The notes below the pieces were generated by a model. That model was given only the letters and a program-made list of their open reading frames with translations, did not search any database and had not been told where the DNA came from. From assembly GCA_029250605.1 (NCBI GenBank), contig JAQXEZ010000001.1, positions 2,498-66,497 on the forward strand: 64,000 bases of DNA, in the 5' to 3' direction. Both the position numbers and the translations under genes were made by a program. This document shows positions 13,000-15,726 of the stretch, in pieces. This DNA comes from Candidatus Thalassarchaeaceae archaeon. GTDB taxonomy: Archaea; Thermoplasmatota; Poseidoniia; Poseidoniales; Thalassarchaeaceae. The stretch's first letter is position 1. Every line of letters starts with the position of its first letter.

Positions 13000-15726
13000 T
13001 CACCCTTCATCTTCGTCTTTTCCGAATCCCAGCATCGACCTAGTGCTAGGATCTGATAGGCCGTATGCCAGGGACGCGATCGAGGTCACGTACATCAGAG
13101 CGACAACCGTGTGTACGGCAGTCAATGCGGTTCCAGCCGTTCCTCCGAAGTTGGTCCAACCCATGGGCCCCAGGTTGTCCGAGACTTGGCCTGTGAAGGT
13201 CTCTGCCCCCTCGTCATCGATCTCACTGAAAACGTGGATCTCGAATACTGGCATCGACTCGGTGCTATCTTCCGAAAGGTCCGGGTCCAAGAAACCGGGC
13301 CCGCGTGTGTCCAAGTAGAAAGTAACCTTGACCTTCCCATACATTATCGCTGTAGTAACGGGTTCGACCTTCAGTTCTATGTCCGCCCCGAGGTACACCG
13401 GTAGTGCACCGGGAATTACATCAACGTAGGTGGAAGAGCCAATCAACTTCCCTTGGATCTGTGTATTGGTGGGCTCGACTGTCACTGTATGCTCTACCAT
13501 GTCGATTCCCTTGTACGTCGTCTTGCTCCCCACCTCTGAGGTCGCAATTGCGTATCCTGCCACATTAAAGCTGAATGGATCGTTCGGACTCGCTAACGAA
13601 CCAGCGGTCCCCATCAACGAAGTATCAGAATTCCCAGCATGGGCGGTCAGGAGCCCGCTTGCCCCCTCTTCCCTGTGTGGAGCCCTCCAAGTCAGGTGCT
13701 CGGTCATTCCGTACACCTGCCCATCTTCGCATGGGAGATCATAGCCAATGAATGCTCCATTGACATCGTAGTCGAAGTCGCAAAGCCCATTCCCGTCAGA
13801 GTTGATGTAGCCCTGGGCCATCCTCTGGCCCAACGTGTCACCTTTTGTGCTCATCTTGAACACTGACCAGTCTCCGGTGCTGATGCCGTCCGATCCGTAA
13901 TAGGTTGCATTCGTCTCTAGACTGTTCCAGGAGAAGAATCCGAAGTACGCGCTAACAGCATCGTCCCAGCCGTATAGCCAGTTGCTGATTGGCATCGAGT
14001 AGTAGGGCGTGTTGCCAGTTACGAAGTTCAGCAGAACCGGCATCACCGTGTCGAAGTAGAAATTGGCGACCCAGTCCCTAAGTGCGTGAGCCGCATCCTC
14101 AGTAATGCCGTACAGGTTAGCGACATAGGCATCGTCCCAGACGTGCTGCACCCCTTCTGCATCAGGAAGGCTCAACCCGGAAAGCTCACCATACATGAAT
14201 GGCCCTGGGAATGATGACTTGAGCCCGATTTCCGGGTCATTTAGGATGAAATCAGATTGCTCCTGAGTCAGTTCCGCCATACCTGCGAAACCGTCTCTAT
14301 TCAGCCCTATTGGAATGTAAATGCCACCCAAGGGATCGTAGTCCCCGAATGCAGTTAGCCACCAATCATTGGAGGCCATGGTCCCCTGTCCACCAGCAAG
14401 AATCAACTCGAACTCAGTGGGAGCACCAGTTAACCCCAAGCCGACCCAAGGCTCCACGTAATCTGCAAGGCCAGCAATCGTGAGTAGGCCAACGTTGTAT
14501 GTCGTCATAGCCCCGAAGTAGTCTGCACTCTGGAGAGGCAGAAGTAATCCAACCACCATTCCCGGCAGGGGGATCCCACTGATTTCGAATGAGGTGAGCA
14601 TCCCAACGCTTTCGTTGAATAGCAGGTTATCTAGTGATGCCGGATCGCTGATGGTGAGTCCGCTAACCTCTGCGAACCTCTCCTTCAGTTGGGGAGTCTG
14701 GTTGTTCACCTCTGCTCCTCCTCCCTTCTCGACGAACTTTGAGGCTGCCAATGAATAAACAGCCCAGTCCATGTGTGTTGCGAAATCTCCAGAGTACCCA
14801 TAGAGGGCGGCTCTGGTCGCTGTGACAGTGTCACTTGGAGCACCCATCCCTGCAATCAGTACCGGTCCAATGTCGCACGTAATGGCAATGCAATTTCCAC
14901 TCCCGTCATTCGCATTGTAGAAAATTGACTTGATAGCTGCCGCATCATAATCCCCAGTTGACATCGAACCATCAAGTCCGCTCTGTGACAGGGAGGCTGC
15001 GTACGAACCTAGCAGTACTTGCTCCTCAACACTCATGTTGCCGAACTTCCCCCCACCAGCGGCGTCCGCCATTGCCCCGATGTCATCGGATGCCCAGATG
15101 CTAGGTGCCCTGTTGGAGAGGTCGAATTCAATCATCTGAGCTGCGAACATGGCCTTAGCGAATATCTCTCCGTACTCGATGCCGCTACCCATTCCCGCTA
15201 TCCTCTGGGTGTTCCAGAGGATGTTGATCTGGTTGACTACGGTGTCACCGGACAACGAATCGTGCTCCACTCCATCGTCATCCGCCCAGGTGCAATCCTC
15301 GCACCACTCGAAGGTCTCGTATCCAGAGTATGTGATCGAACCCTCGTCATAGTCGAATTCGATGACCTCTCGAGTCGTGTTCTCGTAGTAGATGAATGGG
15401 CCTAACATCTCATAGGTGGGCTCAACCGTCGCATCAGCCAGTATTTCCTCCAAATTGGTGATCGAGTTGCCGAAGTACGCCTTCTCGGAAGATGCGTTGA
15501 TCCAGTCGTCATCGAAGTCAGCCGTATAATCCTGGTTTCCATCATCATCCAAGCCGTCGTAGCTTCCTGCAACCGTATCTGCTACGGTTCCTTCGATGAT
15601 GCCGTCTATAGTCCCTGTGACTCCTATTCCGACGTTTACCATCAGTAGCAGTGCCCCAATTATAATTGCAATAGTTCCCTTGTTCTCCATAGTTTCACTC
15701 AGACATCCGAAAAGGGGACTAGGCAT
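13000..15726 (-). CDS. Two-pass membrane protein with a large ectodomain and CD36/LIMP-2 (scavenger receptor class B)-like motifs
   Basis: 908 aa. N-terminal TM GTIAIIIGALLLMVNVGIGV and C-terminal TM ALTAVHTVVALMYVTSIASLAYGL. AYFGNSITNLEEILADATVEPTYEMLGPFIYYE resembles the CD36-family block [12 protein letters not shown]....E.GPYTY.E. NWLYGWDDAV resembles ELLWGY.DP. An alternative start is ATG 15690. Confidence 0.55.
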   Translation of the reverse strand: MPSPLFGCLSETMENKGTIAIIIGALLLMVNVGIGVTGTIDGIIEGTVADTVAGSYDGLDDDGNQDYTADFDDDWINASSEKAYFGNSITNLEEILADATVEPTYEMLGPFIYYENTTREVIEFDYDEGSITYSGYETFEWCEDCTWADDDGVEHDSLSGDTVVNQINILWNTQRIAGMGSGIEYGEIFAKAMFAAQMIEFDLSNRAPSIWASDDIGAMADAAGGGKFGNMSVEEQVLLGSYAASLSQSGLDGSMSTGDYDAAAIKSIFYNANDGSGNCIAITCDIGPVLIAGMGAPSDTVTATRAALYGYSGDFATHMDWAVYSLAASKFVEKGGGAEVNNQTPQLKERFAEVSGLTISDPASLDNLLFNESVGMLTSFEISGIPLPGMVVGLLLPLQSADYFGAMTTYNVGLLTIAGLADYVEPWVGLGLTGAPTEFELILAGGQGTMASNDWWLTAFGDYDPLGGIYIPIGLNRDGFAGMAELTQEQSDFILNDPEIGLKSSFPGPFMYGELSGLSLPDAEGVQHVWDDAYVANLYGITEDAAHALRDWVANFYFDTVMPVLLNFVTGNTPYYSMPISNWLYGWDDAVSAYFGFFSWNSLETNATYYGSDGISTGDWSVFKMSTKGDTLGQRMAQGYINSDGNGLCDFDYDVNGAFIGYDLPCEDGQVYGMTEHLTWRAPHREEGASGLLTAHAGNSDTSLMGTAGSLASPNDPFSFNVAGYAIATSEVGSKTTYKGIDMVEHTVTVEPTNTQIQGKLIGSSTYVDVIPGALPVYLGADIELKVEPVTTAIMYGKVKVTFYLDTRGPGFLDPDLSEDSTESMPVFEIHVFSEIDDEGAETFTGQVSDNLGPMGWTNFGGTAGTALTAVHTVVALMYVTSIASLAYGLSDPSTRSMLGFGKDEDEG

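Follow-up and report, generated by a model that had tools for sequence, protein, structure and literature searches.

Can an archaeal genome encode a member of the CD36 family (Pfam PF01130), which comprises CD36, SR-B1, LIMP-2/SCARB2, the insect SNMPs and Dictyostelium LmpA-C? The question is raised by one gene in a 64,000-nucleotide stretch of DNA from a Candidatus Thalassarchaeaceae archaeon (GCA_029250605.1, contig JAQXEZ010000001.1; the whole stretch is called the window), whose product had been proposed to be a CD36/LIMP-2-like surface protein from the letters of the DNA alone (the sequence-only reading). Profile searches, structure models and comparison with related genomes indicate that the encoded protein is almost certainly a genuine, if very divergent, member of the CD36 or scavenger receptor class B (SR-B) family, in family membership as well as in fold. 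It belongs to an archaeal branch of this known family that had not been described before and that carries a new apex domain; it is not a new kind of system.

Gene and overall architecture

The gene and the parts of its product are located as follows (coordinates are those of the window, all on the minus strand):

13000-15726: CD36/SR-B-like gene, longest open reading frame (ORF) of 908 amino acids, intact (ORF list)
15607-15678: N-terminal transmembrane (TM) helix, residues 17-40 (Kyte-Doolittle peak; AlphaFold helix 16-35/37-54)
15217-15564: N-terminal part of the CD36 ectodomain barrel, residues 55-170 (Pfam, profile, hhalign, model strands 77-167)
15355-15480: motif 1, residues 83-124, inside the N-terminal barrel part
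14101-15216: helical apex insertion, residues 171-542, ~370 amino acids (predicted all-helical; H171-570 in the model)
13177-14100: C-terminal part of the CD36 ectodomain, α5 equivalent and barrel, residues 543-850 (hhalign, Foldseek)
13933-13983: motif 2, NWLYGWDDAV, inside the C-terminal ectodomain part
13903-13911: conserved sequon N606-A-T, inside the C-terminal ectodomain part
13195-13254: motif 3, MPVFEIHVFSEIDDEGAETF, inside the C-terminal ectodomain part
13057-13125: C-terminal TM helix, residues 868-890, with a tail of 18 residues behind it (hydropathy; AlphaFold helix 867-891)
13000-13002: stop codon

The true start is probably M13 (15688-15690), because most homologues and a 100%-identical database entry of 896 amino acids (P0009) begin there, and the protein would thus comprise 896 residues. 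The cytoplasmic stub that precedes the N-terminal TM helix is very short. The hairpin proposed from the sequence, with one TM helix at each end, short termini and a large loop in between, is found by hydropathy and structure prediction alike. Sustained hydrophobic stretches occur only at residues ~17-40 and ~866-890, the AlphaFold model places helices at both termini that match these peaks, and the layout with two terminal helices is conserved across the family alignment. Within the ectodomain, two lone 19-residue hydropathy windows (at 279 and 380) lie just over the cut-off. The arrangement corresponds to the operational definition of SR-Bs, which is an ectodomain between two TM helices with short termini (Boohar et al. 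2023).

The protein is highly acidic (128 D+E vs 30 K+R). Its middle part harbors three cysteine pairs and six N-x-S/T sequons; cysteines 142/145, 279/284 and 649/666 appear and vanish pairwise across the family, and the N606 sequon is retained in 23 of 24 members. The paired cysteines, the conserved sequon and the homology suggest that the ectodomain is located outside of the cell.

Sequence evidence for family membership

The sole Pfam match of the window protein is CD36 (PF01130, 26.1 bits, E = 3.8e-6, residues 89-144); searches of NCBIfam and the Protein Data Bank (PDB) with the window protein as a single sequence return nothing. The family was therefore assembled and evaluated as profiles as well. 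A phmmer search with the window protein, run exhaustively on 1.84 billion cluster representatives, yielded only 104 clusters that all belong to this family and left eukaryotic CD36 unreached. About 14 of the clusters are full length (730-969 amino acids, with 24-50% identity to the window protein). The window protein and 14 diverse full-length relatives were combined in an alignment of 15 sequences (A1). All 15 members are matched by PF01130, with a best E-value of 1.3e-19, and 10 out of 10 relatives that were scored singly exceed the PF01130 gathering cutoff of 26.5 bits (29.3-70.5 bits).

When the A1 profile is compared with all PDB sequences (177,635), the only significant matches are LIMP-2 (E = 8.8e-9) and CD36 (E = 8.7e-5), a resemblance far in excess of chance, and a weak second segment pairs WLfGWrDP with LLWGYKDE in the same order. 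The human LIMP-2 and CD36 sequences used for comparison were checked to be identical to the PDB SEQRES records. In hhalign, the family aligns with LIMP-2 over the N-terminal 104 columns with a probability of 92.8%. After removal of residues 173-539, the alignment runs end to end over 356 columns (LIMP-2 45-431) with a probability of 95.7% and an E-value of 8.8e-9. The CD36-family profile match that the sequence-only reading had anticipated is borne out by all 15 members and by these two probabilities, where a value of <50%, together with an unrelated fold, had been named as speaking against it.

Three motif resemblances had been noted in the sequence-only reading, and each of them is reproduced by a computed alignment. 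Residues 83-124 align with LIMP-2 (family profile against the PDB and hhalign), NWLYGWDDAV aligns with ELLWGYKDEIL (profile, hhalign and C-terminal profile), and the membrane-proximal MPVFEIHVFSEIDDEGAETF pairs with FPVMYLNESVHIDKETASRL (insert-removed hhalign and C-terminal profile). The identity to eukaryotic family members amounts to ~17-19%.

Predicted fold

The AlphaFold2 model of the window protein (predicted local distance difference test, pLDDT, 76.3; predicted TM-score, pTM, 0.70) has β-strands in two stretches, residues 77-167 and 575-835, which are separated by an unbroken run of helices (171-570), and both of its termini are helical. In a Foldseek search of the PDB, 13 of its 13 top matches are LIMP-2 or CD36 (E from 7.5e-5, probability 1.0), with alignments that cover ~345 of 390 LIMP-2 residues and target-normalised TM-scores of 0.35-0.44. 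The most divergent member with the shortest insert (P0152, 730 amino acids, 24% identical to the window protein) was modeled too (pLDDT 78.4, pTM 0.73). Its 13 top matches are likewise all LIMP-2 or CD36, with E-values down to 9.4e-11, alignments across the insert and target-normalised TM-scores of 0.57-0.65. A CD36 β-barrel, as expected from the sequence, is therefore indicated by Foldseek for two independent AlphaFold models with TM-scores of up to 0.65. Based on these models, the protein is predicted to form an asymmetric antiparallel β-barrel ectodomain of normal size that is anchored in the archaeal cytoplasmic membrane by two helices.

For both models, the next-best structural match is LmcA from M. 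smegmatis (E ~4e-3 to ~5e-3, probability 1.0). Beyond LIMP-2, CD36 and LmcA, the window model has no PDB match under an E-value of 0.3, and whole-model searches with both models gave no significant match outside of the CD36 and LmcA barrels. No structural match was found among the viral structures of BFVD. LmcA, also known as PgfA (MSMEG_0317; DUF3068, which is Pfam PorA, PF11271; PDB 7n3v and 7shw), is implicated in lipid and lipoglycan trafficking and restricted to Actinobacteria. Like the archaeal family, it is prokaryotic, membrane-associated and CD36-like; its elongated β-barrel encloses cavities. However, LmcA resembles CD36 by structure only, whereas the archaeal proteins match PF01130 significantly in sequence, and LmcA has a single helix and no helical apex, whereas the archaeal apex is very large. 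Matches of the archaeal family to PF11271 are faint (P0152 reaches 17 bits, E = 0.0038, under the cutoff of 29.5), the window model has a large helical apex, and LmcA was not among the matches when the family profile was searched against the PDB sequences.

The similarities and differences to the eukaryotic CD36/SR-B proteins can be described in the same manner. In both, two TM helices with short termini frame a large ectodomain as a hairpin. Shared as well are the motifs 'N-x-T-N-P-E-E...GPYTY', 'LLWGY-D' and 'PV...ID.E.A' in the same order along the ectodomain, and the asymmetric β-barrel (predicted for the archaeal protein) of ~424 residues with extra sequence at α4/α5. In contrast to its eukaryotic counterparts, the archaeal protein occurs in Poseidoniales, is divergent in sequence and extremely acidic, carries a ~370-residue helical domain instead of a three-helix bundle, has its cysteine pairs at other positions and, in one subclade, is encoded in an operon with ATP-binding cassette (ABC)/FtsX genes.

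The helical apex insertion

The sequence-only reading had noted a protein of about double length and deduced large insertions. Large extra sequence is indeed present, but it is one insertion (residues 171-542) and not several: the flanking parts of 116 and 308 residues add up to 424 amino acids, which is a normal size for a CD36 ectodomain. In the alignments, the insertion separates the segment matching LIMP-2 ~138 from the one matching ~151 and thus lies between the apex helices α4 and α5, as assigned from the published LIMP-2 structure and Boohar et al. 2023. It is found in every family member (243-465 amino acids), makes up ~40% of the window protein and is conserved as well as the barrel, with 33 columns at ≥90%. 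The invariant residues include G375, L377, G389, G448, P465, N476, G517, P521 and Y539. Searched alone, the insertion has no Pfam or PDB sequence match even at E ≤ 10.

According to the model, the canonical three-helix apex is replaced by a conserved, all-helical domain of ~370 residues. Eukaryotic SR-Bs have repeatedly expanded the same apex position, which is regarded as their ligand-sensing region, resulting in ectodomains of 413-2,294 amino acids (Boohar et al. 2023). The doubled length is not unique to archaea, as large apex expansions are also found in protist SR-Bs (Boohar et al. 2023). The apex domain of the archaeal proteins, for which no relative is recognisable, may be a new ligand-binding module.

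Distribution, paralogues and origin

The distribution of the gene was scanned in one genome per GTDB species, and the titles were examined for the 80 best loci. Relatives are encoded in at least 214 species-level genomes. The best 80 loci are titled Poseidoniales, Thalassarchaeaceae, Poseidonia or generically Euryarchaeota/Thermoplasmatota, with the exception of four 'bacterial' metagenome-assembled genomes (MAGs). The examined loci look like Poseidoniales, and no relatives came up outside of this archaeal group. The close homologues are named Candidatus Thalassarchaeaceae, which equals Marine Group IIb (MGIIb). Together with the conserved archaeal synteny, the names of the homologues place the CD36-like gene in an archaeal genome, as first read. 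More than 500 clusters at 90% identity share the invariant residues, and no relative was found among the viral contigs of IMG/VR.

The four bacterial carriers (L020, L022, L069 and L075, in MAGs titled Pedosphaera, Gemmatimonadetes, Yoonia and Salipiger) were rejected as binning errors. The contigs of the Pedosphaera, Gemmatimonadetes and Salipiger MAGs are collinear with Poseidoniales contigs and 80-99% identical to them, and the gene in the Yoonia MAG is 66% identical to a Poseidoniales gene. These public bacterial MAGs are thus contaminated by contigs of Marine Group II (MGII).

A neighbour-joining tree and six two-copy loci reveal two old paralogue lineages with a mutual identity of ~30%. 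The window protein falls into lineage A, in which every genome carries an MGIIb label. All labels of Poseidonia (Marine Group IIa, MGIIa) fall into lineage B, together with the second copies of some MGIIb genomes; a lineage B paralogue scores 69.5 bits against PF01130 and thus lies over the cutoff. The window carries one copy of the gene. In some Thalassarchaeaceae, two copies are adjacent and divergently oriented, as in L028 (5281-7893, minus strand, and 8013-10556, plus strand); the two-copy arrangement is also found at L034, L035, L037, L039 and L052.

A recent transfer or a contamination is argued against by the deep divergence, which is visible in the low identity to eukaryotic members and in the gap of the phmmer search, and by the order-wide distribution. 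A wider proposal would be that the SR-B/CD36 family is not purely eukaryotic: an ancient Poseidoniales lineage with two paralogues would predate the split of MGIIa and MGIIb, would trace back to a prokaryotic ancestor that it has in common with actinobacterial LmcA or to a very old gene exchange with early eukaryotes, and would serve as a lipid uptake or trafficking device with a new capture module at its apex. Taken as a whole, this proposal is tentative and rather doubtful. If it is true, the protein would fill the place of a missing device for the uptake of fatty acids or lipids, or for lipid trafficking, in the most abundant planktonic archaea of the ocean. An old archaeal clade that is similar at the sequence level and stands between the eukaryotic SR-Bs and LmcA, which is related by structure only, could also provide an outgroup for the origin of SR-Bs and a test of inter-domain transfer.

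The sequence-only reading had further supposed that such a protein is not characterised in archaea. This holds for the literature that was searched, in which no paper was found to link CD36 or SR-B to Poseidoniales or to archaea generally, and the Eukarya-wide SR-B survey covered no prokaryotes (Boohar et al. 2023). It does not hold for automated annotation: most relatives already carry a precomputed Pfam tag for PF01130, and in NCBI at least one of them is called 'CD36 family protein' and others 'hypothetical'.

A subclade with an ABC/FtsX operon

A subclade of 14 clusters, which includes P0152, is characterized by short inserts (proteins of 725-742 amino acids) and a low G+C content (34-35%); it is labelled 'Euryarchaeota archaeon' without a finer placement. 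In this subclade, the CD36-like gene overlaps an ABC ATPase gene by 8 bp or sits 6 bp upstream of it. The ATPase is followed by an 808-residue double-FtsX permease of the MacB/LolCE type and by a small ORF of 121-124 amino acids. The operon is present at L080 (8001-13311), L081, L082, L084 and L085 and partly at L083, where a truncated, unannotated ORF takes the position of the ATPase and shares 4 bp with the CD36-like gene. The gene order persists down to an identity of 66%. Neither the window locus nor any of the loci L001-L079 has this MacB/LolCE-type system. A GDSL-lipase/TSP_3 protein (>830 amino acids) is located ~6 kb upstream in L084 and L085.

The MacB/LolCDE-type class of ABC systems extracts lipidic or hydrophobic substrates at the outward-facing side of the membrane. 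In its relation to the CD36-like protein, the system is a neighbour and putative partner in the short-insert subclade, not a homologue.

Proposed function and alternatives

MGII archaea, so far uncultured, rank among the most abundant microbes of the surface ocean, and a diet of proteins and lipids is assumed for them. No archaeal fatty-acid uptake route is known to have been described, though no search aimed at one was made. A conserved CD36-type protein in at least 214 species-level genomes offers a tangible, expressible and assayable candidate for lipid handling by MGII archaea. The sequence-only reading had suggested a shuttle for lipids or other hydrophobic cargo that would suit a particle-attached heterotroph; both this shuttle and the link to such a lifestyle are putative. 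In the proposed mechanism, hydrophobic cargo would pass between the outside and the outer leaflet through the barrel, as in CD36, SR-B1 and LIMP-2, with the enlarged apex as capture or docking site. Free fatty acids or other lipids from phytoplankton and particles would be the most likely cargo, and this cargo would then feed the fatty-acid degradation pathway of the Poseidoniales.

A hydrophobic-cargo role is favored because of the ABC/FtsX operon of the subclade, the tunnels of the CD36 family, which carry fatty acids and cholesterol (literature on CD36, SR-B1 and LIMP-2), the proposed role of LmcA/PgfA in lipid handling and the fatty-acid degradation encoded by all Poseidoniales genera. On these analogies, the balance tips slightly toward the protein being a conduit for hydrophobic cargo, and uptake as the specific direction of transport is possible but somewhat doubtful.

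Several observations weigh against a CD36-like lipid importer. The window protein itself lies 0.4 bits under the PF01130 cutoff, over ~55 residues only. The C-terminal half alone ranks LIMP-2 first, but non-significantly (PDB E = 0.33; hhalign probability 10.6%). The TM-score of the whole-protein window model against LIMP-2 is low (0.38), which is due to the huge insert. No family-wide linkage to acyl-CoA synthetase or β-oxidation genes was detected, and the neighbours vary by clade. Finally, systems of the MacB type are extractors or exporters, so that the operon favors a hydrophobic cargo but, if anything, disfavors its uptake.

The last point leads to the foremost alternative, in which the barrel works outward in lipid trafficking or envelope biogenesis and passes membrane lipids or lipid-linked glycans to the surface or S-layer, as LmcA/PgfA. 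The coupling of the short-insert subclade gene to a system type known for outer-leaflet extraction fits this alternative, as does LmcA, a prokaryotic CD36-like lipid-handling protein, being the next-best structural match. Two family members show faint matches to Pfam PorA/DUF3068, the window gene lies beside an Acyl_transf_3 surface-glycan acyltransferase with a sulfotransferase in the region, and the order-wide conservation suggests a housekeeping role. However, the sequence similarity is to CD36 and not to DUF3068 (58.9 vs 17 bits for P0152), the ABC operon is limited to one small subclade, and two divergent paralogues with an apex of variable length look more like a specialisation for ligands. 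Outward trafficking is considered rather unlikely, though a serious rival, and uptake of fatty acids or lipids is preferred over it.

A second alternative is a surface receptor or adhesin that does not transport lipids, in which the apex docks a protein or particle ligand and the barrel is a mere stalk. LIMP-2 docks glucocerebrosidase, and CD36 binds thrombospondin and PfEMP1. The share of the apex in the protein and the adhesion-type or secreted neighbours of the window gene (an M60 peptidase with Ig domains and TSP3, CARDB and FG-GAP proteins) are in line with such a receptor, and in characterised SR-Bs the apex is the site of ligand recognition and has undergone lineage-specific expansion (Boohar et al. 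2023). The insert is nevertheless as conserved as the barrel and does not vary in the way expected for a receptor surface under diversification, the barrel has kept the motifs that in eukaryotes line the tunnel region, and no partner gene is conserved family-wide, which makes a pure receptor decidedly improbable.

That the CD36 resemblance is due to chance, convergence or an artefact (mis-assembly or a eukaryotic contaminant), for which the sub-threshold Pfam match and the empty single-sequence PDB searches could be cited, is highly improbable and effectively refuted, since four independent methods align the protein in the same order as LIMP-2/CD36, the archaeal synteny is conserved in dozens of MAGs and single-cell genomes near an archaeal tRNA-Met and housekeeping genes, and the invariant residues are shared by the >500 clusters.

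Genomic neighbourhood

The CD36-like gene is preceded by a tRNA-Met gene that is located 100 bp upstream on the opposite strand. The further neighbours in the window are:

7809-11867, plus strand: 1,352-residue M60-like (enhancin-type) peptidase with He_PIG Ig-like domains
11852-12949, minus strand: Acyl_transf_3/HGSNAT-like membrane acyltransferase, 50 bp downstream of the CD36-like gene on the same strand (Pfam)
15905-16918 and 16996-18246, plus strand: two Pfam-less predicted membrane/surface proteins
18247-21396, minus strand: ABC ATPase and 803-residue permease (BPD_transp_1 fused to an N-terminal BNR/Ycf48-like β-propeller)
23251-24060, plus strand: Sulfotransfer_5-family sulfotransferase, a few kb from the locus
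24699-30353, minus strand: giant secreted/surface ORF, 1,884 amino acids (CARDB, FG-GAP, NPCBM_assoc)
41770-49089, plus strand: giant secreted/surface ORF, 2,439 amino acids (DUF7151 only)
55762-58944, plus strand: giant secreted/surface ORF, 1,060 amino acids (bacterial TSP3 repeats)

Farther neighbours comprise SHMT, glycine-cleavage P proteins, GMP synthase, SAICAR synthase and an ABC importer, and the gene is thus embedded in ordinary archaeal chromosome. Neither tblastn of the window neighbours nor unbiased clustering of all flanking ORFs with Pfam annotation revealed an operon partner that is common to the family; the neighbours are specific to clades and for the most part housekeeping genes. 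The gene order perm803, ABC, hyp416, hyp337, tRNA, CD36L, AcylT3, M60, SHMT is present in the closest clade only. In a sister clade, a secreted 1,530-residue PLD-like/PhoX/LTD (Lamin-tail) protein is inserted between the CD36-like gene and the acyltransferase; it is found at L042 (1403-5995) and nine other loci (e.g. L002, L004, L007, L010 and L018) of one Thalassarchaeaceae clade. In more distant clades, the neighbours are unrelated housekeeping genes.

The acyltransferase is possibly co-transcribed with the CD36-like gene. Their adjacency is kept in the closest clade, and the synteny survives across an inserted gene in another clade. At its 3' end, the acyltransferase gene shares 16 bp with the convergent gene for the M60 peptidase, and the peptidase is a secreted protease of the glycoprotein- or mucin-degrading type. 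Eukaryotic HGSNAT and LIMP-2 are both lysosomal; the position of an HGSNAT-like neighbour beside a LIMP-2-like gene may be a coincidence. Together, the sulfotransferase and the acyltransferase hint at genes for surface-glycan modification in the region.

The two Pfam-less proteins are syntenic with the CD36-like gene in all clades of ≥40% identity. The first of them (15905-16918) ends in ...LPGFELVGTTMMAALAGAAIGRNQ..., which is a PGF-CTERM-like candidate anchor with a longer tail. The adjacent ABC system (18247-21396) was considered as a partner of the CD36-like protein and rejected, as it is of the BPD_transp_1 importer type and not related to the FtsX system that the P0152 subclade carries. 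The fusion of its permease domain to a BNR/Ycf48-like β-propeller is an unusual importer architecture. The giant surface ORFs are typical of the surface-protein-rich regions of MGII. Along the window, the G+C fraction changes from 0.56-0.60 (1-12000) to 0.46-0.52 (14000-64000), and the CD36-like gene is located at the transition.

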